A stretch of DNA of 33,923 nt. Source: Dehalococcoidia bacterium (GTDB lineage Bacteria; Chloroflexota; Dehalococcoidia; DSTF01; JACRBR01). Made by a program: the position numbers and the translations under genes. Under the pieces are notes generated by a model. The model searched no databases. It was not told where the DNA came from and was given only the letters and a program-made list of their open reading frames with translations. The DNA is taken from positions 1-33,923 of the forward strand of contig JANPBN010000097.1 of the NCBI GenBank assembly GCA_031430415.1, read 5' to 3'. Shown here piece by piece: positions 239-27,938 of this stretch; position 1 is the stretch's first letter, and the number at the start of each line of letters is the position of its first letter.

Positions 239-874
239 TCAGCATCCCCATCCAAGCCGCCTTTGCAAGCCGCCGGCGCTCCACTGGGGGTTGGCGACGA
301 TTGGGCTCGTGACGCCGAGTTGACACTCTGCGCCGTCCAGCATCCGGTCACCGTCGGTGTCGGCCAGAAGCGCGTCGGTGGAGATGCCGCTACACGCCGC
401 TCCAGTGGCTTCCTCTTGATCCGAGAGCCCATCATTGTCGTCATCCGGATCGCACGCGTCACCAGAAGCGTCCGAGTGAGGTTGCGTGAAGTCATCGAAC
501 GCCTTCGCCGGATGAAGGTCCACGAGGTCGCCGTCGGTGTTCAGCTGAATCGGGTTCGGCGCGACCGGGCAGTTGTCCTGCGATACGTTGGTGTTCAAGC
601 CAGTGTGGGTCGCGGACGGTACGTCCAGAAGGCCGTCAGCGTCGGTGTCAGCCCTGCACGGATCAGTGCCAACCACGACTTCGTCCGCGTCCGTCAGTCC
701 GTCGCCGTCGACGTCGCCCGCTGGGTCCGGAAGACCGAACGGGCATCCCGCGGTGATCGTGCCTGACGATTCTCGAACGTTCGTCCACCCCGCCGAAGAT
801 GCGGTACTGACTAGTGCGACGACAATGGCAACGGCCAAGGCGCATGCCGTATATCCAACGGTCAGTCGCGACAT
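239..874 (-). CDS. Secreted calcium-binding repeat protein (thrombospondin type-3-like DxDxDG loops) with a TasA/alternate-type signal peptide
   Basis: 211-aa ORF with an N-terminal hydrophobic segment (ACALAVAIVVALV). This is followed by SAGWTNVRESSGTITAG, which resembles the SipW-cognate/actinobacterial alternate-type signal motif (..W/F.D....SGN/T...AG). Acidic loops: DVDGDGLTDADE, DTDADGLLD, DDDNDGLSDQEE, DTDGDRMLDGAE. The start abuts the stop of the ORF at 875. Confidence 0.75.
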   Translation of the reverse strand: MSRLTVGYTACALAVAIVVALVSTASSAGWTNVRESSGTITAGCPFGLPDPAGDVDGDGLTDADEVVVGTDPCRADTDADGLLDVPSATHTGLNTNVSQDNCPVAPNPIQLNTDGDLVDLHPAKAFDDFTQPHSDASGDACDPDDDNDGLSDQEEATGAACSGISTDALLADTDGDRMLDGAECQLGVTSPIVANPQWSAGGLQRRLGWGC

Positions 875-1190: not shown

Positions 1191-1484
1191 CTATCGCTGT
1201 TGTTTTACAAGGCTGAGCGTCCAAGTGCGCCCTCCTCCGCCCGGCAGGAGCTGCTCATCATTCTCGAAGATGATCTCGTCAGCTCCACTGTCGTCACCAC
1301 CGTTGCAGGGCCCGCCGAAGTTTTGATACCACTCGCACACGTACAGGAGATCCGGCGACATACTGACGCTGATGTTGCCGCTGGCCGTCGGCGTGTCCGT
1401 CCACCCCGCCGCCACGATGGTCGTGACCGCCGCCGCGCTGGCAAGTCCCGCGACGGCCAACACCGTCCCTACTAACCGTCTCAT
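1191..1484 (-). CDS. N-terminal half of a TasA/camelysin-like secreted protein (signal peptide plus alternate-type motif)
   Basis: 97-aa ORF with GGGGAGG upstream of the ATG. Signal-like MRRLVGTVLAVAGLASAAAVTTIVAAGWTDTPTASGNISV matches the ..WTD.....SGN.. motif of TasA/alternate-type signal peptides. It ends abruptly (..TWTLSLVKQQR*) 13 nt before the next ORF. Confidence 0.6.
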   Translation of the reverse strand: MRRLVGTVLAVAGLASAAAVTTIVAAGWTDTPTASGNISVSMSPDLLYVCEWYQNFGGPCNGGDDSGADEIIFENDEQLLPGGGGRTWTLSLVKQQR

Positions 1485-1623: not shown

Positions 1624-1794
1624 TTAGCGCGCGGTGGAAGCCACGACGAACCTCTCCAACTCCGCTCGGCTGATGCGGACCGTGCGCTTCGTCAGGCGGG
1701 TGGGTTTCAGCCGACCCGCTCTGCACAACGCCCAGTTCGCCGGCGCCGTCGCGAACGTCGCGTAGTCGGCGACGGTCTCAGAGTCCGTGTTGCG
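1624..1794 (-). pseudogene. Possible remnant of an excisionase/MerR-type helix-turn-helix gene (no usable start codon)
   Basis: The stop-to-stop frame reads RNTDSETVADYATFATAPANWALCRAGRLKPTRLTKRTVRISRAELERFVVASTAR*. The second half resembles the excisionase HTH pattern (..sGelpa.r.G.r.vrI.r.dLe.F.). There is no ATG/GTG near its 5' end. Confidence 0.2.
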
Positions 1795-1804
1795 TCATGG
1801 TAAG

Positions 1805-2068
1805 TCACGCGTCAACCACGTCCCGGACGCCGCACAGCGCGCCCGTGTGTGTATCGCCGTCCTTGGTGATGTCGAAGTCCACGATGTAGTTCGGCCCGAT
1901 CGATGCACCGACGCTCTGCGCCACTTGGGACAGATTTACCGCATTGACGGTCGTTTCGGCGTTGATCGGGGCGACTTCCTTGCCATCGCTGCACGTGTCG
2001 CCATCCGTTTTCAGGACGCTCGGGTCGGTGTTGTAGTGGCAGATCTCGCGCGCGTTGCCAAGCCGCTA
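1805..2068 (-). pseudogene. C-terminal fragment of a calcium-binding/dockerin-like secreted protein (no start codon; preceded by an in-frame TAG)
   Basis: The frame is absent from the ORF track because it has no Met. It reads RLGNAREICHYNTDPSVLKTDGDTCSDGKEVAPINAETTVNAVNLSQVAQSVGASIGPNYIVDFDITKDGDTHTGALCGVRDVVDA*. It shows coding-like GC3 and DGD/DxDxxxDG loops similar to neighbouring secreted proteins. Confidence 0.3.
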
Positions 2069-2196
2069 GGCACGACCTCTAGCGTCCGCCGAGCGCACAA
2101 GGCGTCCCCTCAGCTTCGCAGCTCGGAACGCGGGACATAAGCGATTGCCCATAACAACCGCACGTATCTGTTGTTCTCTTGCACAATCGTATTCGG

Positions 2197-2229
2197 CTTA
2201 ACCGCGGGCTAACCACGGAGGCGTATCGT
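2197..2229 (+). promoter_or_regulatory. SARP-type promoter: heptamer direct repeat (11-bp period) plus -10 box upstream of the repeat-protein gene
   Basis: CTTAACC(2197-2203)-GCGG-GCTAACC(2208-2214)-ACGGAGGCG-TATCGT(2224-2229). The geometry matches the three minus-strand sites at 24032, 30497 and 30796. It lies about 60 nt upstream of the ATG at 2291. Confidence 0.55.
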
Positions 2230-2290
2230 GGTGTCTGCCGGGGTTCCGACCGGTGGGCTACGCGCATATCGTGGAATCAGGAGAGAGCCA

Positions 2291-3349
2291 ATGCTGAACA
2301 ACATCTACCGACGGCTGGGCATGATGCTTATCGCCATCGCGGCGACGGGAGCGCTTATCCTCGGCGCCGCGTCACCGGCGTTCGCGGCAGACAGCGACGG
2401 GGACGGACTACAGGACGCAGACGAAGCGACGTACGGAACCAACCCTGCCGATCCCGACTCCGATGACGACGGACTCGTCGACGGCATCGAGGTTCTGTTT
2501 ACGCTGGATCCGCTGGACCCAGATACTGACGATGACGGCCTCAACGACGGGATCGAGGCAGTGTATGGCCTCAACCCGCTGGATTCCGATACCGACAACG
2601 ACGGACTGAGCGACGGCGATGAAGCGCTCGTGTACAACACGAACCCGCTGCTGGTCGACAGCGACAGCGACTACATCTCTGACGGGGATGAAGTCAACGT
2701 CTACGGAACGGATCCCAACGACCCGGACACGGACGGGGACGGCCTCTACGACATTTCTGAGATCGTTACCTATGGCACGGACCCGACCGACGCGGACAGT
2801 GATGACGACGGTCTCGATGATGGCATTGAGGTGTTCTTCGGCACGGACCCGAACGACGCTGACACGGACAACGACGGCCTGAGCGATGGCGACGAAGCGT
2901 ACGTGTATCACACGAATCCCTTCGATACGGACACGGACGACGACGGCTTGCAGGACGGCTTCGAAGTGGAAGTCGGCACGGACCCCGCTGACAGCGATTC
3001 CGACAACGATGCCATCAAGGACGGCGCGGATGTCGAGTTCGTGCAGACGGTGCTTCAGGGCATCTCGGACACGGTGTTCAAGAACGAGACGAACAAGGGT
3101 TCATGGCTATCGGAGCTCGACACAATCGAGAACTACATCCGGCTCGCCGTGTACCTCGACGCAATCGGTGCGGGCCCGTACGCGGAAGGTGTCGAGGCGC
3201 TGGCACTCGGTAAACTGAACGCGATTCTGCAGCACACCAACGGCTGCCCGACGGTACCGGATCAGAACGACAAGATCCTCGACTGCAACGCTCAGGCCGA
3301 GTTCCGGCCCGTGCTCCAGTTGCTCATATCGAACGTGACAGCGCTGTAA
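2291..3349 (+). CDS. Secreted protein with 10 tandem thrombospondin type-3-like calcium-binding repeats and a Cys-containing helical C-terminal module
   Basis: ATG at 2291 is preceded by AGGAGAGAG; the ORF-track start at 2228 lacks an RBS. Signal peptide MLNNIYRRLGMMLIAIAATGALILGAASPAFA/AD. Ten 22-23-aa repeats follow, of the form D[ST]D.DGL.DG.E...YGT[DN]P.D. The C-terminal ~100 aa are non-repetitive. Confidence 0.9.
   Translation: MLNNIYRRLGMMLIAIAATGALILGAASPAFAADSDGDGLQDADEATYGTNPADPDSDDDGLVDGIEVLFTLDPLDPDTDDDGLNDGIEAVYGLNPLDSDTDNDGLSDGDEALVYNTNPLLVDSDSDYISDGDEVNVYGTDPNDPDTDGDGLYDISEIVTYGTDPTDADSDDDGLDDGIEVFFGTDPNDADTDNDGLSDGDEAYVYHTNPFDTDTDDDGLQDGFEVEVGTDPADSDSDNDAIKDGADVEFVQTVLQGISDTVFKNETNKGSWLSELDTIENYIRLAVYLDAIGAGPYAEGVEALALGKLNAILQHTNGCPTVPDQNDKILDCNAQAEFRPVLQLLISNVTAL
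2390..3040 (+). repeat. In-frame tandem repeat array (about 66-69 bp unit, 10 copies) encoding the DxDxDG calcium-binding loops
   Basis: Repeats were read directly from the translation: DSDGDGLQDADEATYGTNPADP, DSDDDGLVDGIEVLFTLDPLDP, DTDDDGLNDGIEAVYGLNPLDS and so on, down to DSDNDAIKDGADVEF. Confidence 0.9.
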
Positions 3350-3371
3350 GGGCGCGGACACGAGAACTCTC

Positions 3372-3400
3372 GAAGGGGCGAAGCTTAAGGCTTCGCCCCT
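3372..3400. terminator. Bidirectional stem-loop between convergent genes
   Basis: AAGGGGCGAAGC (3372-3383), loop TTAAG, GCTTCGCCCCTT (3389-3400) form a perfect 12-bp GC-rich stem, followed by TTTC on the plus strand. It overlaps the stop codon of the minus-strand GT4 gene. Confidence 0.7.
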
Positions 3401-4527
3401 TTCTCATATACATCGCGATACACCTCCAGGTGGCGCGCGACACACCGCGTCCACGTCCACAAGCGTGCGCGTTCGGCGCCCGCGGCGACGAGACCGCGCC
3501 GCCGATCGCTGGAGCCGAGAACCTCGCGTATTGAGGCGGCGATTTCACCTTCGTTCGATGGGTTGAAGTACACGGCTGCATCACCCAAAACCTCGCGGAT
3601 CGCCGGCAGGTCGGACGCGACGACGGGCACGCCGCACGCGGCTGCCTGGAGAGGAGGCAGTCCGAATCCCTCGGCGAGCGAGGGAAACAAGAGCATCTCG
3701 GCATGCGTGTAGAGCGACCGGATGGTGGCGTCATCCAGCCCGTGCGCCAGTCGGACGCGTGGCGCGCACTCGAGCATGGCGACGAACTCCTCGATTGCCG
3801 CGGCGTGACCGGAGCCGGCATCGACGATCGCGACGAAGGAGTGGTGGAGTTCGCGCCTGGCGACGGCGTCGAACGCGACGAGGGCGCGGCGCAGGTTCTT
3901 GCGCGGCTCAAAGGATCCCGCGAAGAGCACGTACGGCTTGGCCAGACCCAGCGTTAGTAGGGGCGATGGGTCGGGGTTTGGAGCGAATGCGACGCCATTG
4001 GGTATCACCTCAATCCGCGACTCGGTTGCGCTCGTGACGGTCGTGATTTGTTTTCGCGAATCTTCGGAGACGGTGATCACGCGCGCGCTTCTAATGGCGC
4101 GGCGCAGGTTCCAACGATAGAACGCGCGGAGCCTCCACGGGAGGTCGGTGCCGTACAGGGTGAGCGGAATCACGTCGTGCACGGTCGTGATAACGGGGCA
4201 GTCCATTCCTGGAACGGGCGGCATGGACGCGCGGACGTGTGTTGCCGGTGCGTGGAAGAGGTCGAGATGATCGGCGGCGCCGGCACGGCGCAGCGTCCAC
4301 AACCGCGTTGCAATCGCGCCGAGCTTTTGTGGCGCCCTGGTGGACGGAGCGCGCCACGCCACGACGTCGGGCAGCCAAGCGGGTCGCGGTTCGCCCGGTG
4401 CGCCATAGGCGACGACCTCGACGCCGCCGATCGTGGCGAGACCGGAGATCAGGTGCTGCGCGTATTGCCCCATCCCGGTGAACAGCGTGGTGCCGGACAA
4501 TCCCCAGGCGTCGAATCCGATGCGCAT
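3385..4527 (-). CDS. Glycosyltransferase family 4 (GT-B fold); last gene of the cluster
   Basis: 380 aa. N-terminus MRIGFDAWGL is typical of GT4. The C-terminal donor-binding motif FPSLAEGFGLPPLQAAACGVPVVASD carries the E(x7)E signature. Confidence 0.9.
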   Translation of the reverse strand: MRIGFDAWGLSGTTLFTGMGQYAQHLISGLATIGGVEVVAYGAPGEPRPAWLPDVVAWRAPSTRAPQKLGAIATRLWTLRRAGAADHLDLFHAPATHVRASMPPVPGMDCPVITTVHDVIPLTLYGTDLPWRLRAFYRWNLRRAIRSARVITVSEDSRKQITTVTSATESRIEVIPNGVAFAPNPDPSPLLTLGLAKPYVLFAGSFEPRKNLRRALVAFDAVARRELHHSFVAIVDAGSGHAAAIEEFVAMLECAPRVRLAHGLDDATIRSLYTHAEMLLFPSLAEGFGLPPLQAAACGVPVVASDLPAIREVLGDAAVYFNPSNEGEIAASIREVLGSSDRRRGLVAAGAERARLWTWTRCVARHLEVYRDVYEKGAKP

Positions 4528-4530
4528 TCG

Positions 4531-5688
4531 CTAGGTGCGCACGCGCGGGCGCGCGCCGATCTCGTCGATGTGTTCGTCGATGCGGTGGGTGAAGGTGTCC
4601 CAACTGAACTGCGCGGCCCGCCCGCGAGCCTGTACGCCCATGCGATCGAGCGCGCAGTCACTCATCGCCTCCATGGCGCGCATAGCGCCGGCAAAGGCAG
4701 GCGCTGTATCTGGCAGCAAGAGGCCGGTGTGTCCGTCGACGACGGTTTCTCGTGGACCACCTCTGTCCGTCGCGAGCACCGGCTTGCCGCAGGCCATCGC
4801 TTCCAACGGTACAAGACCGAGGTCCTCGTTGAGTGCCGGATGAACCACCGCGTGGCTTCGCTGATAGAGGTGGACGAGTTCGTCATCACCCGGATTAGGG
4901 ACGAAACTGACGTCGGGGCGATCCGCCGCCAATGCGCGAAGATGACCAAGATAGGGTTCGCTCTTGCGGTCGACCATCCCGGCGATCACCAGCCTGAACG
5001 CATTGTCCGCCGGCCGGGGCTTGAAGAGTGTCCAGGCTTCGAGTGCCAACTCGACGTTCTTCGTCCACATGATGCGCCCGGGCACGAGGAAATAGGCATC
5101 GCGCGCACCGCCTGGGAGGAAACGGTCGCAATCGACGCCGTGGTAGGCGACTTCCACCCGGTCTGGGCTGACGAGGTTCGCGTCGAGCACGCGCCGCATG
5201 GTCTCGCGGCTGTTACAGAAGACTCTCGCGTAGCGCCGCCAGGCTGGCCGTTCGAGCCGAGCGTACAGCGTTGTCGCAAAGCGTTGCGGCAGATGCCGGC
5301 CATTCTGGAAGTACTGGCTGCGTGTCGCTTGGTCGTAGACGATTTTGAGCGGCGTCAGGCAGACGCAGGATGTCGGCACGGTCGTGCGAAGCGCAGTCAG
5401 ATTGCCAAGTCCTTCGCTGACGACGACCATAGCGTCGTGCGGCGTTGTATCGATCTTCTGGGTGAGGAGCGTGGCGCCGGCGCACGCGACATCGAGCAGG
5501 GAACGCCGCACCGAGACCTCGCGCAGCAGGCGGATGGGCATGCGCTGGAACTCCGGGAACGTGGCCTCCGGTTCGTAACGGTTGGTATAGAGCGTCCAGT
5601 CGTGGCGGCTGCGTGACATGAGTTCGAGTAGCGTGCGCTCAGCGCCGCCCTTGAGGTACACCCACGGATAGTAAAGTGCGGGTCTCAT
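4531..5688 (-). CDS. Glycosyltransferase family 4
   Basis: 385 aa. Motif HPALNEDLGLVPLEAMACGKPVLATDRGGPRETV. The ATG overlaps the upstream stop (ATGA at 5685-5688). Confidence 0.9.
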   Translation of the reverse strand: MRPALYYPWVYLKGGAERTLLELMSRSRHDWTLYTNRYEPEATFPEFQRMPIRLLREVSVRRSLLDVACAGATLLTQKIDTTPHDAMVVVSEGLGNLTALRTTVPTSCVCLTPLKIVYDQATRSQYFQNGRHLPQRFATTLYARLERPAWRRYARVFCNSRETMRRVLDANLVSPDRVEVAYHGVDCDRFLPGGARDAYFLVPGRIMWTKNVELALEAWTLFKPRPADNAFRLVIAGMVDRKSEPYLGHLRALAADRPDVSFVPNPGDDELVHLYQRSHAVVHPALNEDLGLVPLEAMACGKPVLATDRGGPRETVVDGHTGLLLPDTAPAFAGAMRAMEAMSDCALDRMGVQARGRAAQFSWDTFTHRIDEHIDEIGARPRVRT

Positions 5689-6866
5689 CGAGCTGCCTCA
5701 CGATAGACCTGGATCATCTCATCTGCGACGGCGTCCCAGCGGAAGCGCGCTGCATGGGCCAATCCGGCATTGGCGAGGCGCTCGTGCCGCCCGCGGTGGG
5801 TGAGCACAGAAGCGATCGTGTCGGCAAGCGCCTTCTCGTCCTCGGGATGGACGGTTGCCGCGGCAGGGCCGGCGATTTCGGCCAGCGCTGTGGTGCTGGA
5901 TGTGATGACGGGCGTGCCGCATGCCATCGCTTCGAGTGGCGGCAGTCCGTACCCCTCGTGAAGCGATGGATATGCGAAGACGTCTGCACCGGCGTACGCT
6001 GCAGGCAACTCCGCATCGTCGACATACCCGATGAATTGGATGCGGTCGCGCACGGCTGACTGCTCGTAGGCCGCGCGCACAGGGCCGGTTTTCCAGCCGC
6101 TCGCCCCTGCAATAACGAGGTGGTGCGGAAGGCCCTCCCGCCGCACGGCGACCTCGAACGACCGTATGAGCCGCGCAAGATTCTTCCGTGGCTCAACCGT
6201 ACCCACAAAAAGCACGTACGGCGTGGAAATCTTGCAGCGCGCGCGGAACGCTTCCACGGCGGAGCGTTCCTGAGGCATGAAGCGACTGCTTATGCCTTCA
6301 CCAACGATGCGGATCTTTGGTCGCACCGAGGGGAAGCGGGCGGCGAGTCGCTCCCCCGTGTAGGACGAAACGCACACGACGCGCGTGGCCTTCCGCATGG
6401 CGATCGCGGTGAGGACGCTGAGGTAGAGGTGCGATCGCAGGCGGTGCACAGAGCGGTCGAGGAACGCCATGTCGTGCACGGTGACGACGGATGGGCAGCG
6501 CAGCGCCACGGGCAGGATGTAGTTCGGCGAGTGGTAGACGTCGGGCTCGGTTCGGCGGACACCAAACGGAACGACGCACTGTTCCCATAGCGCGCGTGTG
6601 TATTCGTTTGGGGTAGGGAACGGCGCCCGCCTCCGCGTGATGGGAAGTGCGTCTAGCCCGTCGTCGGCCCTCGTCAGGAAGACATCCAGGCGCACACCAT
6701 CTGCCGTGGCCAGTGCGCGGATGAGCTCGTCGGTGTATCGCACTACACCCGAGAACTGGCCCCGAAGCGAGCGCCCCATCATTGCCACTCTCAGCGGCGC
6801 GATGTCATGCTCGATCCGGGATTCATCCGCAGCGAAGGGGCGATCGGTCGGCAGTGCGATGATCAT
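5685..6866 (-). CDS. Glycosyltransferase family 4
   Basis: Motif YPSLHEGYGLPPLEAMACGTPVITS. Start chosen at the internal ATG (MIIALPTD..), which forms an ATGA overlap with the stop of the GH99-like gene. The longer track ORF (to 6983) adds an Arg-rich extension that would overlap that gene by about 120 nt. Confidence 0.85.
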   Translation of the reverse strand: MIIALPTDRPFAADESRIEHDIAPLRVAMMGRSLRGQFSGVVRYTDELIRALATADGVRLDVFLTRADDGLDALPITRRRAPFPTPNEYTRALWEQCVVPFGVRRTEPDVYHSPNYILPVALRCPSVVTVHDMAFLDRSVHRLRSHLYLSVLTAIAMRKATRVVCVSSYTGERLAARFPSVRPKIRIVGEGISSRFMPQERSAVEAFRARCKISTPYVLFVGTVEPRKNLARLIRSFEVAVRREGLPHHLVIAGASGWKTGPVRAAYEQSAVRDRIQFIGYVDDAELPAAYAGADVFAYPSLHEGYGLPPLEAMACGTPVITSSTTALAEIAGPAAATVHPEDEKALADTIASVLTHRGRHERLANAGLAHAARFRWDAVADEMIQVYREAAR

Positions 6867-7972
6867 GGCGACGCACCGGGCATCGCTTTGAATCGGTCGA
6901 GGTAGCGCCGTGTGATCGCGATGTACTGGCGACCGAACTCGTCCGAATCGGCGATGTCGCTCGCCTCGTGAAACTCGTTCCATGTCTCGATGACGATCGT
7001 CCTCGCGCCGGTGTTCAACGCGCCTTCAAAGTTGCGCTCGTAGAACCGGCCATTCTCTCGATCCGCGAACCGTCCGCTGCGACCGGGACCGTCCAGCTCG
7101 CGCTCGTCGTATCCGGGGCCGACAGCGGCAATACTCGAACCGATGTCGCGAAACCCGGTCAGTGACGCGCCCCAGGCGTAGAATCCGTCCAGGTGTATCG
7201 GCCGTGACGGATCGAGCCCGCCATCGCCGACGTCGGTCGCAAATCGCCAGCTCGCCTCGGCGACGATGTAGGGTCGCACGCCGAAGTCCTCCTCGAACCG
7301 GCGCGAGACGTAGTCGAACAACTCCTGATCGAACGAGATCTCGAACCACGAAGCCCACATCCAGAGCGCCGGACGGCCGGAAACCATGGCCCACTGATCT
7401 CGCGGCAGGATGGAGTAGAAGGTGTTGATGAGGCTATAGAAACGGCGCTGATTGTCGGGGTTCGTAAAGTCGCGTTGCCCCTTCGGCCAGCGGCCGATGA
7501 GCCCTGTATCGAGGAACATGGCAATCTGAGGCGGATCCCCGCCTTCGGCTGACATGGCAGCCGCCGCACGCGACATGTTGGCGAGTCCCACGTCGCTCGA
7601 CGGCTCGGCATCGCCCCAGTAGACGGCGAGGGCGACATCGATGCCGGCGTCGGTCATGTCCGCGAATTGCTTCTTGAACCAGTCGGCGTTCCGGTAGCTC
7701 GCGTTCGGCTCGGCCGGGCGATCGGTGAGGGCGCCGTTGTGGGGGCCATCCGGCAAGTCGTACCAGTAGTAGAAATAGGTGTATGCCTGCCGTGGCTGGC
7801 TCGAATCGGGCGTTGCTTCGGCGAACGGCGGAAGCGCGACCGGTGGGCGGCTTCGCTTGGCCGAGGCGGAGACGCCCCAGAGTACGAAAAACGCCACGAC
7901 CAGGACGCCGCCAATGATGATCCAGCGCCGCCAGCGGTTCCGCCGTGTCGTCCCGCGCTCCATGAACGTCAC
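6863..7972 (-). CDS. Membrane-anchored GH99-like glycoside hydrolase (endo-alpha-mannosidase/mannanase family homologue)
   Basis: GTG start in a GTGA overlap with the upstream GT4. Basic N-terminus plus a single TM (WIIIGGVLVVAFFVLWGV). Blocks line up with GH99: YTYFYYWYDLPDG (FYYSWYGNPQFDG), GIDVALAVYWGD, LDGFYAWGASLTGF (FDGIYTYFATNGF), AAVGPGYDE (PSVGPGYID), IETWNEFHEASDI (ITSFNEWHEGTQIE). Both Glu of the N-E-x-H-E motif are present. Confidence 0.7.
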   Translation of the reverse strand: MTFMERGTTRRNRWRRWIIIGGVLVVAFFVLWGVSASAKRSRPPVALPPFAEATPDSSQPRQAYTYFYYWYDLPDGPHNGALTDRPAEPNASYRNADWFKKQFADMTDAGIDVALAVYWGDAEPSSDVGLANMSRAAAAMSAEGGDPPQIAMFLDTGLIGRWPKGQRDFTNPDNQRRFYSLINTFYSILPRDQWAMVSGRPALWMWASWFEISFDQELFDYVSRRFEEDFGVRPYIVAEASWRFATDVGDGGLDPSRPIHLDGFYAWGASLTGFRDIGSSIAAVGPGYDERELDGPGRSGRFADRENGRFYERNFEGALNTGARTIVIETWNEFHEASDIADSDEFGRQYIAITRRYLDRFKAMPGASP

Positions 7973-9156
7973 CGCGGCACCCCGGCGGCGGTCCGGGCTT
8001 CATCGAGCGACTGATCGGTGGCCGGAGCTCGGCCGGTGGCCGCGCGGTACACGTCCAATGTCTGGCGGGCTGTCTCCGCCCACGTGTAACGGCTGGCGCG
8101 GGCCCAGCCAGCCACGGACATCATCCGCTGCTCTCCGGGCGATGTGACGATGTCGAGGATTGCGGCGGCAAGAGCGGCATCGTCGAGGGGCGCCACAAGT
8201 CGCGCGGCGTCCCCAAGAATCTCTCGGTGCGCCGCCAGATCGGAGGCGATGACGGGTGTGCCCGCGGCCATCGCTTCGAGCGGCGGCAGGCCGAATCCTT
8301 CGGCGAGTGAAGGAAAGACGAACACTGTGGCATTCCGATACAACAAGGCGAGATCGCCATCGGTGAGGCCGGACACGATACGGACGCGACCATGCAGCCC
8401 AGACCGGCGAATCTCCTCATGGATGGGTATCGCGTCGCCAGAGCCGGCGGCTGCAACGACGACGAGCGCGAGGCCTGGTGCGGCGCTTGCCACGCGCGCA
8501 AACGCCTGAAGGACGGTGATGAGGTTCTTACGCGACTCGAACGAGCCCACGAACAGGACATAAGGCGTGACTTGATCGCGTCGCTCGCCGATGGGTGTCT
8601 GGACAACGCCGTTACAGACAACATCAAGCCGGTCAGCGGGCAGCGCCAGCAGACCAGAGATCTCGGCGCGCGATGCGCGGGAGACAGTGATGACGCGCGC
8701 GGCGCGGCGCACGGCGCCAAGGTTCCAGCGATACCACGCGCGCTGCCGCAACGGCAGCCGACGCGGGCCCTTACCGTACAGCGTCATCGGTATCACGTCG
8801 TGGAGCGTGACGACGAGCGGACACGTTAGGCGACGCGGGACGGGAGGCCATGCTGGCCGTGGATGCACCGTCGGCGCATGAACGACATCCAATCCGAGAT
8901 CGCGGGCTAGCTGAGGCAAGCGCCACATGTACGATGCGAGGAGCGAGAGCTTTCCGAGGTGGGGAACCGGAAGCATGTGTATGCCCACGCCATCGCTCGT
9001 TGTCATCGGGAGATCCGTACCCTCCGGAGCGAACAGCTCAATGCGGTGGTCGCCGGACGTGTCGGCGAGCGCACGTACGAGACCATCGACGTAACGTCCG
9101 ATGCCAGAGTAGCGCGTCTCTGGCCCCAGAATCGACGCGTCGATGCCGATCCTCAC
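7969..9156 (-). CDS. Glycosyltransferase family 4
   Basis: Motif FPSLAEGFGLPPLEAMAAGTPVIASD. Start set at the GTG (V)RIGIDASILG, which forms a GTGA overlap with the upstream stop. The track ORF extends to 9240 with an Arg-rich overlapping extension. Confidence 0.85.
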   Translation of the reverse strand: MRIGIDASILGPETRYSGIGRYVDGLVRALADTSGDHRIELFAPEGTDLPMTTSDGVGIHMLPVPHLGKLSLLASYMWRLPQLARDLGLDVVHAPTVHPRPAWPPVPRRLTCPLVVTLHDVIPMTLYGKGPRRLPLRQRAWYRWNLGAVRRAARVITVSRASRAEISGLLALPADRLDVVCNGVVQTPIGERRDQVTPYVLFVGSFESRKNLITVLQAFARVASAAPGLALVVVAAAGSGDAIPIHEEIRRSGLHGRVRIVSGLTDGDLALLYRNATVFVFPSLAEGFGLPPLEAMAAGTPVIASDLAAHREILGDAARLVAPLDDAALAAAILDIVTSPGEQRMMSVAGWARASRYTWAETARQTLDVYRAATGRAPATDQSLDEARTAAGVPR

Positions 9157-10370
9157 GACGCGACTCCGGTGTGCAAGATCTCGCCACAGACAACGGAGAG
9201 GTGCGCTTCGACGCGTCTGGCCGCGGACTCCCATGTCCACGATGCGGCGACTTCGCGGCCGTTGCGACCGAGTTCGCGCGCAGCCTGCTCGTCGGCGAGA
9301 ACCGCCGTGAGGGCAGCCGCAAAGGCCGGAGCGTCGCGCGGAGTGAGCAGGCCGGTGATCCCATCGATCACGCTTTCGGTGACGCCGCCTTCGCCTACAG
9401 CTATCACCGGCAGTTGCGCGGACATCGCTTCGAGCACAGCCAGCCCAAACGGTTCGGCGTGCGGGGCGTAAACAAACGCGCGCGCTCCCCCGTACGCCTG
9501 AGCGAGTTCGACATCGGTCACCCGTGCGCGGATCTCGAGCGAAACACTCCGCTCCATCGCCAGGCCGCGGAGGTGTTCGGCGACGCCCTCGTTCACGTGG
9601 TTGCCAACGATCAACAGCGGCGGGCGAAGCGCAGGCGACAAGAGAGCAAGCGACTCGATCAGGAACTCGAAGCCTTTGTGATGCTCGATCGCGCCGACCG
9701 ACAGCAGGTAACCGCCGTCCGATCGCCGCGGCGGAAAGCGCTCCGCATCGACGCCGAGGTAGCAGACGTGGGCGTCGCGTGCGTAGTAGCCGCGAATGAG
9801 CGAGGCGGTGTGCGCGGAGTTCGTCAGCACGGCCCGCGCGCGCGCGACGTTGCGCTGGTCTCGCCGCTTTGTGACGTCATCCAGAAGCGATTCCGCCGGC
9901 TTGTGCCAGAACGACCGCAAACGCTGATAGGCGGTAAGCGGGCCCGAATCGGGGCGGCATTCGTCCTGCAGGAAGCGACGGGGCGGTTCATGACAGTAAT
10001 ACGCGGCAGGTGTGCTCATGTACGCGAGCACGCTCGGCGCCTGGAGAAACTGACACGCACTCACGAGCGCCGCGTCGTATCGCGCGGCATCGATCTGTTC
10101 GGACATGTGCGCGTAGGCGTCCTCGAGGGCGTCAAGATCCTGGTAGCGGCGCATGTCGTTGAGGTAGAGGCCGAGGCGCTTCGGGCCGCGCGCACGGTAT
10201 GGCAACACGGTGACGCTGCCCGCGTACTCGTGGCTGTTCACGAACGCCCGGTCGGCGCTCTCCAGCGTGAAGACATCGATCTCGTGACGCTGCGCGAGGC
10301 GCTTGCACAGCTCATGGATCGCGCGGGCGGCGCCCCCGGACGGGTGGTTATGGACGAGCGCGATGCGCAT
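9153..10370 (-). CDS. Glycosyltransferase family 4
   Basis: Motif YAPHAEPFGLAVLEAMSAQLPVIAVGEGGVTESV. Start set at MRIALVHNHPSGGA, preceded by GGGAGGG at about 9 nt. This overlaps the Wzy-like gene end by 23 nt. The alternative start is 10427. Confidence 0.85.
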   Translation of the reverse strand: MRIALVHNHPSGGAARAIHELCKRLAQRHEIDVFTLESADRAFVNSHEYAGSVTVLPYRARGPKRLGLYLNDMRRYQDLDALEDAYAHMSEQIDAARYDAALVSACQFLQAPSVLAYMSTPAAYYCHEPPRRFLQDECRPDSGPLTAYQRLRSFWHKPAESLLDDVTKRRDQRNVARARAVLTNSAHTASLIRGYYARDAHVCYLGVDAERFPPRRSDGGYLLSVGAIEHHKGFEFLIESLALLSPALRPPLLIVGNHVNEGVAEHLRGLAMERSVSLEIRARVTDVELAQAYGGARAFVYAPHAEPFGLAVLEAMSAQLPVIAVGEGGVTESVIDGITGLLTPRDAPAFAAALTAVLADEQAARELGRNGREVAASWTWESAARRVEAHLSVVCGEILHTGVAS

Positions 10371-11886
10371 CGACGGTGCCCTCCCATTCAGCTTCGAGGG
10401 CAGGAGCGCGGACAGCGATTCCGGCAAACAGCCAGAAGAGGAATGTCACCTGTACCGCTGCCCACACGGGGTGATAGGCGCTCACGAAGAGCAAGCCCAC
10501 GCCGGCGCCCGCAGTGCCGAGCGTGATGGTCCGCAGCGCGACGTCCCGGACGCGGAGGCCGGCGAGCAAACTGTGGCATGTGGCCGTGAGGAGCATCGCA
10601 GCGAAGAGCACCAGTGCGACCACGCCCATCTCGAGGCCCATCTGCAGGTACCAGGTCTCGGTGGCCCACGGCGGCAGGCCGCCCTCGCCAAGACCGTTGG
10701 CTGTGATGGAGACGTGGCTACCGTTGCCCAATCCGAGACCCCACGGCCTCGCCCGGATGATCTCGACGCTATCGGTGATGAGACGCGTGTGCGCGCTGGC
10801 GGATGCCTCTTCGCCCGAAAACAGCTCGCGGAACACACCGAAGGATGCGCCCGAGACGATGAGGAATCCGAGCGCCATCGCGGCGACGCCCCACGACAAC
10901 CACGTCGCCTTGGCAAAGGAGCGTGACACCAGCACGAGGACGAGCAGACCCATCGCTGCGCCTGCGAGCGGCGCCCTGGCGATCGTCATGCCGAGCGTGC
11001 CGATCATGAGCAGCAAGAATGCTCCGGCCCAGACTTGCGAACGGCCACGAACCGAAAAGAAGAGCGCCGCTGCAACCGGGACCAGGAGTACCTGATAGAA
11101 CGCGAGGCCCAGATCCGCGAGGAACAGCGACGACGCGCGCGGCAGTTCGCCTGAACCGAGGATCCGCGACCGCACAAACTCGACCTCGTGCGGCGTGCCG
11201 ATGGCAGCGGTGAAGTCCTGGTACCCGAGCATGTTCAGCACGCCGTTGCTCAGGTTCGGCGCGGCGAACTGGACCACAGCGACGCCGGCGATCACGATGC
11301 TCAGCGCGATCAATACCTTCAGTATGAGCCGCACGTCGTCACGCGTGAGCGTCAGCCCCCGGCCGACGAAGTACGCAAGCAGGTAGAGCGCGTCTTGCCG
11401 AACCGCGAGCGCGCGCACGAACGGCGTGGAGCCGCCTACGCTTCCCGGATAGAGCGAATATCCAACGACGAGCGCGATAAACGACAACACGAGAATGTCG
11501 AGGAAATGCACACGGGGTGCGCGGCGCTGGAGGAACAACTCGTGAACCATGCGGACCGCGAGTACGACGATGATCTCGTCCTTCCACAGCTGACTGGCGC
11601 GCAAGACCGGAGTGGAGTGCGTGGCCGCAAATGCCGCGAACGAGATGAACCGGGCGAGCGTGATCAGCACCACAAGGGCGATGACGGTTCGGGTGGGCCA
11701 CTGCCAGGCGATCCACGCAAGCACGGCGGCGAACGCGAGAGCGAGCAGCAGAACGGACATGCCCGCGACTACGCTGCCAAACAGCACGACGCCGCCGAAG
11801 GCGACGAGCGCGGACACACCAGCGGCGCGGCGGACCCGCGCGAGTGCTCCCGATGGCGGGATGTAGGTGAACTCTGCGAAGGTCAC
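10348..11886 (-). CDS. Polytopic membrane protein of the O-antigen ligase/Wzy-polymerase-like family
   Basis: About 512 aa with at least 10 hydrophobic helices. It has a periplasmic-loop-like segment (RPWGLGLGNGSHV....TETWYLQMGLEMGVVAL) of the type seen in Wzy_C/WaaL-like proteins. GTG start (VTFAEFTY) is in a GTGA overlap with the upstream GT2. The track extension to 12090 is Arg/Pro-rich. Confidence 0.7.
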   Translation of the reverse strand: MTFAEFTYIPPSGALARVRRAAGVSALVAFGGVVLFGSVVAGMSVLLLALAFAAVLAWIAWQWPTRTVIALVVLITLARFISFAAFAATHSTPVLRASQLWKDEIIVVLAVRMVHELFLQRRAPRVHFLDILVLSFIALVVGYSLYPGSVGGSTPFVRALAVRQDALYLLAYFVGRGLTLTRDDVRLILKVLIALSIVIAGVAVVQFAAPNLSNGVLNMLGYQDFTAAIGTPHEVEFVRSRILGSGELPRASSLFLADLGLAFYQVLLVPVAAALFFSVRGRSQVWAGAFLLLMIGTLGMTIARAPLAGAAMGLLVLVLVSRSFAKATWLSWGVAAMALGFLIVSGASFGVFRELFSGEEASASAHTRLITDSVEIIRARPWGLGLGNGSHVSITANGLGEGGLPPWATETWYLQMGLEMGVVALVLFAAMLLTATCHSLLAGLRVRDVALRTITLGTAGAGVGLLFVSAYHPVWAAVQVTFLFWLFAGIAVRAPALEAEWEGTVDAHRARP

Positions 11887-12857
11887 TGTGCGAACACCGT
11901 TTCGAGACTGCGCTGTGCTGCGACGTCGACAGGATCGTGCGAATACGGCGCGGGCCCACCGCGGCGGCGGAGCACATCGAGCAACGCGCGCGTCTGGGCG
12001 TGGTAGTAGCTGTCGTGGCGGTGGCGGCGGGAGACCGCCGAGCGGACGCATGTCTTCGCGAGTGTGAGCGCCAGGCGGCCAGCGGCCCATGCGCGCACGA
12101 CCACTCCTCCGTGGCGAAAGGCGAGCATGAAATAGTTACGGCATGCGTAGTACCGCGCGATGCGCGGATCGAGGCGTTTCGTCGACTCGGAGACGGCGTG
12201 CCAGATCCGCGCGCGTGGAGCAAAGTACGTGCGCACGCCGCGTTTGCCGGCGGTGAGACACCAGTCGACGTCTTCGAGATAGAGAAAGTACCGCTCGTCC
12301 ATGGGTCCGGCGATGGCGGCACTTTCCTGCGACAGGAATAGAGAACAGCCAGACGCCCACTGCACTTCGCGCGCGCGATCGAACGATCCCGCTGGCAGGC
12401 CGAGCCCGATGTGCTCGCGATTCAGCCACGGCCACTTGAGGAGGCCACCGGCGCTCCAGATGCGTCCCTCTCCGCCTCCGACGAGGATTTCCGGCGCAAC
12501 GATCGCCGGGCCGTTGACCGTCTCCGCCGTTCGGACGAGTTCGGTGAGCGCGCTTGGGTCGGCGAGCGTGTCGTTGTTGAGCATCCACACGTACCTGACG
12601 CCAGCTTCGCGCGCCCAACGCATTCCCACGTTGCAGGCGCCGGCGTAGCCGAGGTTGCGTCCGGTGCGCACTATCTCGAGCTGCGAAAACTCGCGATCGA
12701 GCTCGTCGGCGGAACCATCGGTCGAGCCGTTGTCGATGACGGCGATGCGATAAGAGGTGTGGTCGAGGGCAAGCAACGAACCGAGACAGCGACGCGTTTG
12801 CGCCGCGCCGTTCCAGTTGATCACCACGATGCCTACCTGCTGCAACATTCCCGTCAT
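11883..12857 (-). CDS. Glycosyltransferase family 2 (WbbL/rhamnosyltransferase-like GT-A)
   Basis: VGIVVINWNGAAQTRRCLGSLLALDHTSYRIAVIDNGSTDGS, then NLGYAGACNVG and MLNNDT. Start at MTGMLQQ lies 5 nt after the upstream stop. The track extension to 13121 overlaps the upstream gene. Confidence 0.85.
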   Translation of the reverse strand: MTGMLQQVGIVVINWNGAAQTRRCLGSLLALDHTSYRIAVIDNGSTDGSADELDREFSQLEIVRTGRNLGYAGACNVGMRWAREAGVRYVWMLNNDTLADPSALTELVRTAETVNGPAIVAPEILVGGGEGRIWSAGGLLKWPWLNREHIGLGLPAGSFDRAREVQWASGCSLFLSQESAAIAGPMDERYFLYLEDVDWCLTAGKRGVRTYFAPRARIWHAVSESTKRLDPRIARYYACRNYFMLAFRHGGVVVRAWAAGRLALTLAKTCVRSAVSRRHRHDSYYHAQTRALLDVLRRRGGPAPYSHDPVDVAAQRSLETVFAQ

Positions 12858-12862
12858 CCCGC

Positions 12863-13525
12863 CTAGAACTCGTTCAGGACGACGCCGAGTACGGTGCTTC
12901 CAAGCCGCTCGATCTGCACGCGCGCGCGACGATGGACCGGCGCACCGGCATTCTGCGCGCGCATGACGTACAGCGCGTTGCCAGCTTTCCGTGCGGCGAG
13001 AAATCCGTCGCTGGAGAGCGTGGTTGGCGGCGTGTCGATGATCGTGTACATGTCCGAAGCGGCGGCGGCCTGAATCGCATCGTCGATGCGATAGCGGTTG
13101 TCCTGATTGGCCTCCGCCCATTGCATGAGGTAGACGCCCGGCCGGTTCGTCTCGGTGACCGACCGCCGCAGTTCCGGCGGAATACCATCGCGGAGTTGGC
13201 TGGCTCCGGCGCGGAACAACCGGCTCAGGGCGCCATGCTCCTCTTCGATCAACAGGACGCGGTGATCCTCGGCGAATGCAACCGCGAGATTCCCGGCGAC
13301 CAGTGATCGCCCATCGCCCGGGTGCGCGCTGACGACGGCGATGGCGCGGTTTGTCGAGTGCGTGAGGATCGCCTCGATATTCGCGCGGAGCAGCCGGAAT
13401 GACTGTGCGACCGCGCCCTCCGCCCGGCGGGAGATCAGCAACTCCGACATGTCCCGCGCGGGAGCAGTGCTGCCCGGACCAACCTGGTTGCCGTTGTGCG
13501 ATGGGGCTGGCGTAATGATCGACAT
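12863..13525 (-). CDS. BY-kinase-like (CpsD/CapB-type, MinD/ParA-fold) ATPase with degenerate catalytic motifs
   Basis: 220 aa, AGGAGG 5 nt upstream of the ATG. It follows the BY-kinase layout: AQSFRLLRANIE, a Walker-A-like VSAHPGDGRSLVAGNLA, and Walker B TIIDTPP. Walker A has R instead of K. The Walker A' position reads LLIEEEHG instead of LLIDaDLR. The protein ends ..GVVLNEF with no C-terminal Tyr cluster. Confidence 0.75.
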   Translation of the reverse strand: MSIITPAPSHNGNQVGPGSTAPARDMSELLISRRAEGAVAQSFRLLRANIEAILTHSTNRAIAVVSAHPGDGRSLVAGNLAVAFAEDHRVLLIEEEHGALSRLFRAGASQLRDGIPPELRRSVTETNRPGVYLMQWAEANQDNRYRIDDAIQAAAASDMYTIIDTPPTTLSSDGFLAARKAGNALYVMRAQNAGAPVHRRARVQIERLGSTVLGVVLNEF

Positions 13526-13533
13526 GCTGCCTC

Positions 13534-14904
13534 CTAACCCGTGATACGTGCGACTCGCCCGATCACGGGCGCCCCGAATTCGCGTTCGATGTCTTCCACG
13601 GTGACCGGCTCGCGTTCGAAGTAGGCCAGCACGTATACGGCGGTCACTGACACGAACACCGCTACGAAGACGCCTAGCGCGTACGTCAGGATCAACCAGA
13701 TCAGGCTTGTCTGCAGATGGGCATTTTGCAGGAGTAGCGCCCGGGCGCTCGCTGGTAACGTCCGCCCGGCGACTACGTCGATGACCTTCTGTTGCAGCGA
13801 GGACAGATGGGTCTCCGCGCGCTGCAAATCGAGGTTGAGCTTGCTGTACTGCGGCTCGAGCCCGGACAGTCGTTGTAATTCCGCCGTCTCGATCAGGATG
13901 GCGTTCCGAAGGACATCGGAGCCGGCCTGCGAACTGGCATCGGTGACGGTCAGCTGGTTCACGAGCGCCATCTGGGACTGGATCGCCCCGTCGAGCTGGG
14001 AGACGTTGTTGATGGATTGAAAGTCGCCGAGCGCGCCGACGGAGCCGTCAAAGTTGGCTTCGGCCTGGGCGAGCTGATCGCGCGCCTGGAGGAGAGGCGC
14101 TTCGCCTGCAGCACCGGCCTGCTCGAGGTCGGAGACACGATCGCGAAGACGAAGGACCGCGCTTTGCGAGAGCCCGACCTCAAACGACAGTCGCTCATAC
14201 TCTGGTTGGAGTCGAAGCAGCGACCCGAGTTGCCCCTGCGCGGCCGAAAGCGACGCGTTCTGCCCCGTTCCCTGCTGACCGCGGCCCGAAGTTGCCGAGA
14301 TCCGCGCCAATTGAAGCTGCGAGATCAGTCCGAGTTTCTGGTCGCGGCGCTGAGTCAGGGCATAGGCGTCGTTGTCGGTCTGAAAGCGCACCAATGCGCT
14401 GCGGGCTACATCGACATCGCCCTGTGCGATGTCGAGTTCTGTCTGGAACGCGCGCCGCACATCGCGACTATCCGGCGTGTTGATCTCGGCGAAGAGCACC
14501 TGCGCTTCCACCGCGGCGATGTTCGCGACGCGCAGCGCCGTTTCCTTGTCCGTGTGCTTGACTCGCACTTCGTACAGGAGGCTCGTGCTGGAACGACCCA
14601 CCGTCAGCTTCGGCTCGATGATCAGCCAGCCGCGCACCTGATCCGGCGTCGTGCCGTCGGCCAGCTTGGCGGCAATCCGTTCCGAAAGCGTCTCGCTTTC
14701 GGCGAGTGCATCGAACCCGATTTGCGCGGGCAAGTACTCGCCCGGCGGCGGGATGTACGACTGCAGTACGGCCACGGTAACGGCCGCCTCCGCCCTATCG
14801 GTGGCGCGGTGATAGGCCCAGAAACCGGCCAACGACACGACGATCGCGACGACAGGTACGAACCACCACCGAAGCAGCGCTCGAACAAACAGTCTCATCT
14901 CCAT
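13534..14904 (-). CDS. Polysaccharide co-polymerase / chain-length determinant (Wzz/CapA-like transmembrane modulator)
   Basis: 456 aa. N-terminal TM (WWFVPVVAIVVSLAGFWAY), a long Gln/Leu/Ala-rich helical middle region, and a C-terminal TM (LIWLILTYALGVFVAVFVSVTAVYVLAYF). It sits directly upstream of the BY-kinase-like gene. SD is AGGGGGTGG. Confidence 0.75.
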   Translation of the reverse strand: MEMRLFVRALLRWWFVPVVAIVVSLAGFWAYHRATDRAEAAVTVAVLQSYIPPPGEYLPAQIGFDALAESETLSERIAAKLADGTTPDQVRGWLIIEPKLTVGRSSTSLLYEVRVKHTDKETALRVANIAAVEAQVLFAEINTPDSRDVRRAFQTELDIAQGDVDVARSALVRFQTDNDAYALTQRRDQKLGLISQLQLARISATSGRGQQGTGQNASLSAAQGQLGSLLRLQPEYERLSFEVGLSQSAVLRLRDRVSDLEQAGAAGEAPLLQARDQLAQAEANFDGSVGALGDFQSINNVSQLDGAIQSQMALVNQLTVTDASSQAGSDVLRNAILIETAELQRLSGLEPQYSKLNLDLQRAETHLSSLQQKVIDVVAGRTLPASARALLLQNAHLQTSLIWLILTYALGVFVAVFVSVTAVYVLAYFEREPVTVEDIEREFGAPVIGRVARITG

Positions 14905-14916
14905 CGACCACCCCCT

Positions 14917-15975
14917 TTAGAGCACCGGCCTGCGAAACCGGATACTTCCACCAAGCAATGCGCCGAACGCGACGCAGTCATACGCAAAGTGAGCCAACGC
15001 CTTCGCAACGGGCCACCGGCCGCTCAACCGGCGCCGTGCAGCAAAGGCACCAAGGTACGGGAGCGTTAGGATGAGAGCCGCGCGGCGCCATCGCGCCAGC
15101 ACGACACCCGCGACGAATGCGTCGAACAGCGCGTGCGTCGGATGTACCCAGACGCCGAGCCACAGGTGACGGCGGAACTCTGGGTATCGTGCGGCCTTGG
15201 CCGGCCAGTTGTAGAAGCGACGAGGCTGCGTCACCCATGAGAATGCGGACAGCCGCATCACTTGATGGTGCACAAGCGCCGTCTCCGCGAACCTGGCGTC
15301 CCAACCGAGGCGGCGCACGCGCCAGCCGAGGTCCACGTCCTCCCAGTAGTGGCAATCCGGATCGAAGCCTCCGGCCGCCAGGATCGCTTCGCGCGGATAG
15401 CAGACATTGGAGGTCGAGAATGAGCCATCCAATCGCCGTGTTTCGATGAAGTGATTGAACAGCGGCTGCCGAGCGCCGGGAAGCGCCGCGGTGCGTCCCT
15501 GGACGATCCCGGTTCCCGCGCCGACAGCGGCGAGCATGGCGCGTAGCCAGCCGGCGGAGGGAACGCAGTCGCTGTCGGTAAATGCGACGTACCGGCCCCG
15601 CGCGAGGTCGACTCCTACGTTACGCGCGATGGCAGGGCCACAGTCACGGACCATTCGCACGCCCGTAAAGTCCACGGACGTGTGAGTGGCAACGTCACGC
15701 ATCAAGGCGGACGAGTCGTCGGTAGATGCGTTGTCGACGACGATCACTTCGTACTCGTCGTGCCGGAGGTTTTGGTCAAGCAGCGCAGCGATCGTTTGGG
15801 CGACGAGGTCGCGGCGATTCCGCGTCGGCACAACGACGGAGATGGCTGGCGCAGCGGAACGCGGGCCGCCGGTAGCGATAATGTCGTACAGGTCACGTCG
15901 CGCGCGGTTAGCGTCCGGCGCGGATGCCTGTGCTGGCGCGACTCCCTGGCCGTTGTGGCGCATCGTCAATGTCAC
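14917..15975 (-). CDS. Glycosyltransferase family 2 with C-terminal membrane segments (paralogue A)
   Basis: ISVVVPTRNRRDLVAQTIAALLDQ, VIVVDNASTDDS, DxD FTDSDCVPSAGWLR, DVDLGWRVRRLGW, hydrophobic C-terminus. Start is either the GTG at 15975 (GTGA overlap with the upstream stop) or the ATG at 15963. The track extension to 16116 overlaps the upstream gene. Confidence 0.8.
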   Translation of the reverse strand: MTLTMRHNGQGVAPAQASAPDANRARRDLYDIIATGGPRSAAPAISVVVPTRNRRDLVAQTIAALLDQNLRHDEYEVIVVDNASTDDSSALMRDVATHTSVDFTGVRMVRDCGPAIARNVGVDLARGRYVAFTDSDCVPSAGWLRAMLAAVGAGTGIVQGRTAALPGARQPLFNHFIETRRLDGSFSTSNVCYPREAILAAGGFDPDCHYWEDVDLGWRVRRLGWDARFAETALVHHQVMRLSAFSWVTQPRRFYNWPAKAARYPEFRRHLWLGVWVHPTHALFDAFVAGVVLARWRRAALILTLPYLGAFAARRRLSGRWPVAKALAHFAYDCVAFGALLGGSIRFRRPVL

Positions 15976-21825: not shown

Positions 21826-21864
21826 GTGGTTGTTGTGCCTCGGCTTCGTTGCAATCCGCGCGTA

Positions 21865-22914: not shown

Positions 22915-22948
22915 GGTTCCTCCTCCGGTTTGGTGCGGCCGCACATCG

Positions 22949-23992: not shown

Positions 23993-24031
23993 GCGCTGCG
24001 GCCTCGAATAGGTGGCATAGGGACGGTCGGT

Positions 24032-25345: not shown

Positions 25346-25351
25346 CAGCCG

Positions 25352-27927: not shown

Positions 27928-27938
27928 TGTCGTCTTTC

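Follow-up and report, generated by a model that had tools for sequence, protein, structure and literature searches.

In a 33,923-nucleotide stretch of an uncultured soil Dehalococcoidia bacterium of the phylum Chloroflexota (assembly GCA_031430415.1, contig JANPBN010000097.1; hereafter the window), a gene at 2291..3349 encodes a predicted secreted protein built of thrombospondin type 3 (TSP3) repeats. It lies beyond the far end of a long surface-glycan cluster, at whose other end stands the gene for a regulator of the SARP family. We assign positions 2197..2229, directly upstream of the TSP3 gene, with good confidence as a predicted SARP-type activator-dependent promoter, which would make the gene a member of the cluster's SARP regulon. 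As read from the sequence, a single SARP-family regulator very probably turns on the TSP3 protein and the polymer at the same time.

The proposed TSP3 promoter and its sister sites

The putative promoter consists of two direct repeats and a -10 hexamer, followed by a ribosome-binding site ahead of the start codon.

2197..2203, forward strand: upstream repeat CTTAACC, the putative first half of the activator site, at about -39 to -33 given a start near 2236
2208..2214, forward strand: downstream repeat GCTAACC, starting 11 bp after the start of the first repeat, with the spacer gcgg between them
2224..2229, forward strand: -10 hexamer TATCGT, 9 bp past the TAACC of the second repeat, spacer acggaggcg
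2280..2287, forward strand: ribosome-binding site GGAGAGAG, ahead of the ATG at 2291

From TATCGT to the ATG is 62 nt, and the distance from the second repeat to the -10 becomes 8 bp when the heptamer is taken as TTAACCN. If transcription is assumed to start 6-7 nt past the -10, the repeats would cover about -39 to -22, with the 22-bp box reaching from about -40 to -19. At SARP promoters the direct repeats are 11 or 22 bp apart and the 3′ repeat is 8 bp from the -10; the afs box of AfsR spans -40 to -19 and overlaps a poor -35 element, and two protomers, bound side by side, make contact with region 4 of sigma and with the alpha C-terminal domain (PMC10936776). Tested for these features, 2197..2229 has the 11-bp repeat period, the repeat-to-hexamer distance and the overlap with a poor -35. 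The hexamer 17 bp 5′ of TATCGT is ACCGCG, which is not -35-like, and a scan of 1700..3700 for sigma-70-like promoters gave no match, so none lies upstream of the TSP3 gene. Structure in the leader RNA did not exceed chance (z +0.5).

Two other readings of these letters were considered and rejected. A start codon at GTG 2228 would lie within the -10 without a ribosome-binding site, and the orthologues begin at the equivalent of ATG 2291. A promoter for an alternative sigma factor, with TTAACC as its -35, would have a spacing to the -10 of 9 or 20 bp.

The pattern TAACC-N6-TAACC, with at most one mismatch, has 6 matches in the window against 0.17 expected, and half of the window's TAACC pentamers fall inside these pairs. 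The full pattern of two repeats, N9 and TAnnnT occurs exactly four times, each time 5′ of a gene and oriented toward it.

2197..2229, forward strand: candidate promoter of the TSP3 gene, 23.7 bits
30796..30828, reverse strand: candidate operator/promoter B, CTTAACT-N4-GTTAACC-N9-TACCAT, just 3′ of the SARP stop codon and before an open reading frame (ORF) of 71 amino acids, 29.9 bits
30497..30529, reverse strand: candidate operator/promoter C, CTTAACC-N4-CTTAACC-N9-TAGGTT, before the priming sugar transferase gene and the cluster, 32.0 bits
24032..24064, reverse strand: candidate operator/promoter D, GTTAACC-N4-GTTAACC-N9-TAAGAT, an internal promoter before the methyltransferase gene 22949..23992, 33.5 bits

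The scores come from a 33-nt weight matrix built from 27 sites of other genomes, with all window sites and all TSP3 sites excluded. By this matrix the TSP3 site is the fourth best in the window, and the next candidate reaches 13.4 bits. In 40 simulated windows scored with the same matrix, the best score averaged 2.6 bits and the highest was 17.8. None of the four site regions has a sigma-70-like -35. The initial annotation had proposed that this distal gene carries the operator of the cluster, and both the independent matrix and the retention of the site in orthologues bear it out.

The window also has a weaker pair, TTTAACC-N4-AATAACT, at 24172..24204 on the reverse strand (13.4 bits), which lacks a -10 and overlaps the stop codon of the kinase gene. 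Two other loci, L003 and L084, have a comparable extra pair about 130 nt 5′ of their methyltransferase-block promoter.

Conservation in other genomes

A homology search with the whole TSP3 protein gave 6398 matches and was swamped by unrelated TSP3-repeat proteins. Orthology was called by possession of the same C-terminal domain, including a 14-residue insertion, on inspection of the C-termini. Only P0002, P0008 (locus L090) and P0015 (locus L089) proved to be true orthologues among those matches; the gene at 8360..9424 of locus L002 (52% identity) is another. Promoters were read for three loci, counting the window; at L090 the gene is missing its 5′ end. The upstream regions were aligned by anchoring on the repeats, as MAFFT had misaligned L089.

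Window: CTTAACC-N4-GCTAACC-N9-TATCGT, 62 nt from -10 to ATG; gene convergent with the last cluster gene, a glycosyltransferase of family GT4
L002: ATTAACC-N4-ATTAACC-N9-TAAAGT, 64 nt from -10 to ATG; gene directly 5′ of the SARP gene
L089: TTTAACC-N4-CTTAACC-N10-TATCTT, 60 nt from -10 to ATG; gene at a cluster end, facing a convergent DUF5010 cluster gene (59% identity)

The spacer is one base longer in L089 (N10). Counterparts of the ribosome-binding site stand in the same place in L002 (GGAGG) and L089 (AAGGAGG), and the sequence flanking the sites is not conserved among the three loci. The gene has been relocated relative to the cluster, yet it retains the site with the same spacing and a similar distance to the ATG, as predicted by selection on a functional promoter.

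The TSP3 and SARP genes of L002 lie on the same strand (noted at 9598..9630). A scan found no terminator-like hairpin between them, and a site resembling a promoter for the SARP gene, TTGACA…TAAATA, can be made out by eye. With this layout, transcripts running on from the SARP-dependent promoter could create positive feedback at that locus.

Homologues of the regulator numbered 83 at E <= 1e-10, nearly all of them metagenomic, and those loci that are in species genomes belong to Chloroflexota metagenome-assembled genomes (MAGs). The closest are in L002 (65% identity; 'Chloroflexia', Microflora Danica) and L003 (63%; a Dehalococcoidia soil MAG). The clusters have a common order of SARP, small ORF, priming transferase, dehydratase, nucleotidyltransferase, methyltransferase, DUF5122 protein, kinase, methyltransferases and GT4. 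In orthologous clusters the repeat pair stands ahead of the small ORF, the first biosynthetic gene, the DUF5122 gene and the methyltransferase block; the DUF5122 gene has its own operator in L003, L004, L005, L084, L085 and L087.

Thirty-three sites from about ten clusters were aligned in register, and the -10 was not used as a selection criterion. Their consensus is nTTAAC(C/T)-N4-nTTAACC-N9-TAnnnT, with an 11-bp period throughout. The T, A and T of the -10 are seen in 32, 32 and 30 of the 33 sites, exactly 9 bp past the second repeat. GCTAACC, the second repeat of the TSP3 site, has C at a position where T stands in 29 of the 33. A repeat pair follows the SARP stop codon within 300 nt at 19 of 80 homologue loci, against 0.27 expected from the background density. 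The earlier suggestion that the TSP3 gene and the cluster form one regulon is strengthened by this association and by a C-terminal domain that the TSP3 protein has in common with the cluster's DUF5122 propeller. Four more distant SARP homologues (L016, L019, L023 and L046) have three successive TTAAC(C/T) repeats with 11-bp spacing just after the SARP stop codon.

Regulator and glycan cluster

The regulator, its neighbours and the cluster occupy most of the window.

30859..31863, reverse strand: SARP-family regulator (OmpR-type winged helix plus BTAD), directly upstream of the cluster
32019..32046, reverse strand: sigma-70-like promoter TTGACA-16-TATACT (11/12), ahead of the SARP gene
30514..30729, reverse strand: conserved 71-aa ORF after the SARP gene, with its own operator
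3385..30471, reverse strand: glycan cluster, one long run of genes
25352..26950, reverse strand: gene for a secreted DUF5122 (delta-60) propeller protein, whose C-terminal ~105 residues are homologous to those of the TSP3 protein
3385..4527, reverse strand: GT4 gene, the last of the cluster, convergent with the TSP3 gene

Both domains that define a SARP are found in the regulator by Pfam (Trans_reg_C, 31.7 bits against a cut-off of 26.2; BTAD, 78.8 bits against 22.1). It aligns over its full length with AfsR (8hvr, 8hvr_I) and EmbR (2fez, 2fez_A), and the similarity to AfsR is low (E 2e-4). The longest ORF, of 334 aa, extends about 88 residues further at the N-terminus than the homologues, which are 248-311 aa long, and the true start is probably Met89/90 (~31599) or Met50. 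The SARP gene appears to have no repeat-type promoter and to use the ordinary sigma-70-like one.

The 71-aa ORF (…RYETFVIRLW…HGEIRHV…RF…FI…) also lies next to the SARP gene, with an operator of its own, in L002-L005 and L084-L088. It has no Pfam or NCBIfam match and no recognisable DNA-binding domain. Its product may be a partner or a first target of the regulator.

The cluster encodes a priming sugar transferase, a dehydratase/epimerase, a nucleotidyltransferase, four methyltransferases, a kinase, the DUF5122 propeller, an ABC-2 exporter, several GT2 and GT4 enzymes and a methyltransferase-GT2 fusion, together with a Wzy_C protein, a co-polymerase/tyrosine-kinase-like pair and a GH99-like protein. 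The ABC-2 exporter occurs alongside the co-polymerase/tyrosine-kinase-like pair and Wzy_C (12863..14904, 16999..19271 and 10348..12090, all on the reverse strand), in addition to the separate kinase and the four methyltransferases. This mix of export functions fits no single textbook export pathway.

The TSP3 protein and its C-terminal domain

The gene and the predicted parts of its product are as follows.

2291..3349, forward strand: TSP3-repeat protein gene, 352 aa, product predicted to be secreted
2291-2386, forward strand: predicted signal peptide, residues 1-32
2390-3025, forward strand: ten TSP3 repeats, residues 34-245
3026-3346, forward strand: predicted helical C-terminal domain, residues 246-352, with the Cys319/Cys332 loop
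3372..3402: 14-bp GC-rich hairpin between the convergent TSP3 and GT4 genes, overlapping the GT4 stop codon

Read by eye, the N-terminus, MLNNIYRRLGMMLIAIAATGALILGAASPAFA|AD, resembles a Sec signal peptide in its n, h and AxA features: the n-region is basic, the hydrophobic core is 19 residues long and AFA|A follows (…ASPAFA|ADSD). The orthologues have ASA|A or ALA|L immediately ahead of the first repeat. With these features the protein is expected to be secreted.

Repeats start at residues 34, 56, 78, 100, 123, 146, 169, 191, 214 and 236, a period of 22-23 residues. The region carries tandem DxDxDGxxDxxE units and matches Pfam TSP3_bac (PF18884; E 1.1e-34). The initial annotation had described a signal peptide and ten DxDxDG repeats. 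All ten repeats are present, and the signal peptide agrees with the features seen by eye, but the motif is strict in only eight, the units at 123 (DSDSDY) and 236 (DSDNDA) being degenerate. Asp and Glu make up 34% of the repeat region; from the motif and this acidity, the repeats would be expected to bind Ca2+. An AlphaFold model built on ten relatives (predicted local distance difference test, pLDDT, 88) has ten regular short-helix repeat units followed by a helical bundle. Against the PDB the model gave no significant match for the C-terminal bundle; the best local match, to the calcium-binding loops of Bap region B (7c7u), is not significant (E 0.6).

The gene is convergent with the last cluster gene, as first described. 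The hairpin between them (-29 kcal/mol; z -3.9 and -4.4) is terminator-like on both strands, so that with its convergent neighbour the TSP3 gene looks like a transcription unit of its own. The distance of about 27 kb first given between this gene and the regulator needs correction: the regulator is 28.6 kb away, and 27 kb better fits the first promoter of the cluster.

Over its C-terminal ~105 residues the TSP3 protein is homologous to the C-terminal end of the DUF5122 propeller, with the common pattern ADPxW..VV..LP..AF … DGCGxxPDxDDxIxDCxAQ..VR.L. The coordinates of this domain, with its CxxxxDxDDxIxDC loop, are:

3026..3346, forward strand: copy in the TSP3 protein
25355..25675, reverse strand: copy in the propeller

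An exhaustive search found the domain in 134 representative protein clusters, in every case at the very C-terminal end. It is placed after TSP3 repeats in 43 of 60 sampled proteins, and the passenger domains ahead include VWA7_N, PD40 propellers, peptidases, PKD and LRR. The combination of TSP3 repeats and C-terminal domain without a passenger makes the window protein a bare 'stalk plus C-terminal domain' form of a modular surface-protein family. Three of eight aligned relatives match Pfam FIMAH (PF22888; best E 7.4e-7). The window's TSP3 copy has no match to FIMAH even at E 5, and the propeller tail of L004 reaches 17.3 bits, below the cut-off of 24.8. A search of species genomes with the C-terminal domain confirmed no relative, and a literature search for FIMAH turned up only fimA/fimH.

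Proposed mechanism and alternatives

We propose that two TTAACC repeats spaced by 11 bp stand in for the -35 at a fixed distance from a TAnnnT -10. The SARP regulator (30859..31863) would sit on the repeats as two adjacent protomers, covering about -40 to -19, and bring in RNA polymerase. With a start near 2236, the TSP3 gene would give a monocistronic mRNA whose leader is about 55 nt long and whose 3′ end lies at the hairpin 3372..3402. The regulator itself would be made from its ordinary TTGACA/TATACT promoter, and once it is made or activated, four units would come on at once: the 71-aa ORF, the glycan cluster beginning with its first gene, the internal methyltransferase/glycosyltransferase block and the distal TSP3 gene. 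The TSP3 product would be exported via its signal peptide, with an acidic repeat stalk expected to bind Ca2+ and a weakly FIMAH-like helical C-terminal domain. Its most likely role is that of an extracellular or cell-surface partner of the glycan.

Several points weigh against this proposal. The whole case is drawn from sequence, and the orthologue promoters read number only three. The TSP3 site is the weakest of the four in the window, owing to its GCTAACC repeat. In L090 the gene after the orthologue is unrelated, and no cluster gene is recognisable on the P0002 contig, so physical linkage to the cluster is not universal. Distant proteins with the same C-terminal domain at L082 and L083 have neither repeats nor a SARP gene nearby; these two were the only loci that came out of a metagenome scan with a C-terminal alignment, a scan saturated by the TSP3 pattern. 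Finally, the conserved 71-aa protein beside the SARP could also share in regulation.

The last point leads to the possibility that the repeats are real but are bound by another factor, either the 71-aa protein or an unlinked regulator. This ORF, of no known function, accompanies the SARP throughout the orthologous clusters, yet its product has no recognisable DNA-binding domain, and the motif tracks SARP homologues down to 34% identity, even at loci where no small-ORF homologue was detected. Direct repeats of 11-bp period that lie 8-9 bp from the -10 and replace the -35 are the published signature of SARPs, and we regard binding by another factor as unlikely. A somewhat more serious alternative accepts co-regulation by the SARP but takes the TSP3 protein for a general calcium-binding surface or stalk protein unrelated to the glycan. 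Elsewhere the module of TSP3 repeats and C-terminal domain is joined to many unrelated passenger domains, and relatives of the protein exist away from glycan clusters. Against this, the gene is at the cluster or adjoins its regulator in three genomes, and its C-terminal domain recurs in the cluster-embedded propeller, itself under the operator in L003-L005, L084, L085 and L087. We consider an unrelated role possible but the less probable reading.

The site at 2197..2229 might in principle be a chance match or a recent, functionless local copy of a cluster promoter, being the lowest-scoring of the four and 28 kb from the regulator. Its 23.7 bits exceed the simulated maximum of 17.8, and L002 and L089 preserve its repeats, its -10 and its spacing but not its flanks; this reading is hardly credible and already largely refuted. 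A related question concerns a second copy of the octamer that contains the -10.

2224..2231, forward strand: TATCGTGG, first copy
2267..2274, forward strand: TATCGTGG, second copy, 43 nt from the first, judged a chance repeat

The second copy is present as claimed in the initial annotation, which had suggested an alternative -10 or an additional site. In simulations this octamer itself recurred within 70 nt with a probability of 0.3%, but an exact 8-mer repeat of any kind within 151 nt of the same composition arose in 26% of simulations. No counterpart of the second TATCGTGG was found in L002 or L089. It has neither TTAACC repeats nor a -35 on its 5′ side, a start 6-8 nt past it would hit the GGAG of the ribosome-binding site, and nothing stands out in the structure of the leader (z +0.5). 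Its function as a promoter element or binding site is very improbable, and the second copy is probably there by chance.

Relation to known systems

SARPs have been studied almost solely as antibiotic switches in actinomycetes, and the repeat recognised by Streptomyces SARPs is TCGAGCG-like. Streptomyces SARP promoters (AfsR/afsS, ActII-ORF4 and DnrI targets) have the same geometry as the sites described here and a regulator of winged helix plus BTAD. Unlike these, the present sites carry the repeat TTAAC(C/T), the host is an uncultured member of the Chloroflexota, and the targets are a surface-glycan cluster and secreted proteins rather than an antibiotic pathway. The mechanism thus appears to be the known SARP mode in an unusual phylum and with unusual targets. 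A literature search found no description of this Chloroflexota SARP system.

There are partial precedents for control of envelope or biofilm functions, instead of antibiotics, by a SARP fold. EmbR of Mycobacterium tuberculosis is a SARP-fold regulator tied to cell-envelope glycan genes. GSU1771 of Geobacter sulfurreducens is a SARP-type regulator tied to biofilm and exopolysaccharide (PMC10599522). EmbR has an FHA domain and GSU1771 a receiver domain, whereas the present SARP is small and without a sensor domain; neither of the two has been described with a TTAACC-type operator or a TSP3 target.

In thrombospondin type 3 repeats, tandem DxDxDGxxDxxE units serve as the calcium-binding motif, and they place the window protein with the extracellular or surface family of bacterial TSP3 proteins (PF18884; OmpA-linked forms; Myxococcus CglD and MtsC/MtsD). 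Unlike those proteins it has no OmpA, barrel, VWA or other passenger domain. Its NCBIfam matches are all far under the cut-off, so the likeness is at the level of the repeats only. A purely functional analogy is offered by the Rap proteins of Rhizobium leguminosarum, secreted calcium-binding proteins that act on exopolysaccharide (PMC9298526), in that a secreted Ca2+-binding protein again accompanies a matrix polysaccharide. The Rap proteins differ in their cadherin-like fold and type I secretion, and have no homology to the TSP3 protein and no known SARP control.

A readable TTAACC recognition sequence would make regulons legible in the genomes of bacteria that cannot be cultured. Here it predicts a conserved regulon of a surface glycan cluster, a small protein and two secreted proteins, and it gives context to an otherwise anonymous TSP3 repeat protein. 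The common C-terminal domain may link the secreted proteins with the surface polymer. More speculatively, and rather doubtfully as matters stand, the domain could tie these proteins to the polymer of the cluster, by binding it or as an acceptor for Wzy_C-family attachment, with the SARP switching on a self-assembling surface layer of glycan, propeller and TSP3 stalk. If this is true, the module of TSP3 repeats and C-terminal domain would be a general device for surface display, and the TSP3 stalk would form bridges via Ca2+ in the surface layer of uncultured Chloroflexota.

Neighbouring reading frames

Three reverse-strand frames lie beyond the TSP3 promoter, at the near end of the window. The gene at 239..874 encodes a second signal-peptide protein with TSP3-like repeats, and that at 1191..1484 a small secreted protein; both products have AGWT(N/D) straight after the hydrophobic segment, and there is no SARP-type site nearby. 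The open frame at 1805..2067 (…CHYNTDPSVLKTDGDTCSDGKEVAPINAETTVNAVNLSQV…) resembles a TSP3/dockerin-like C-terminus and has no start codon after the preceding stop; it may be a gene remnant.

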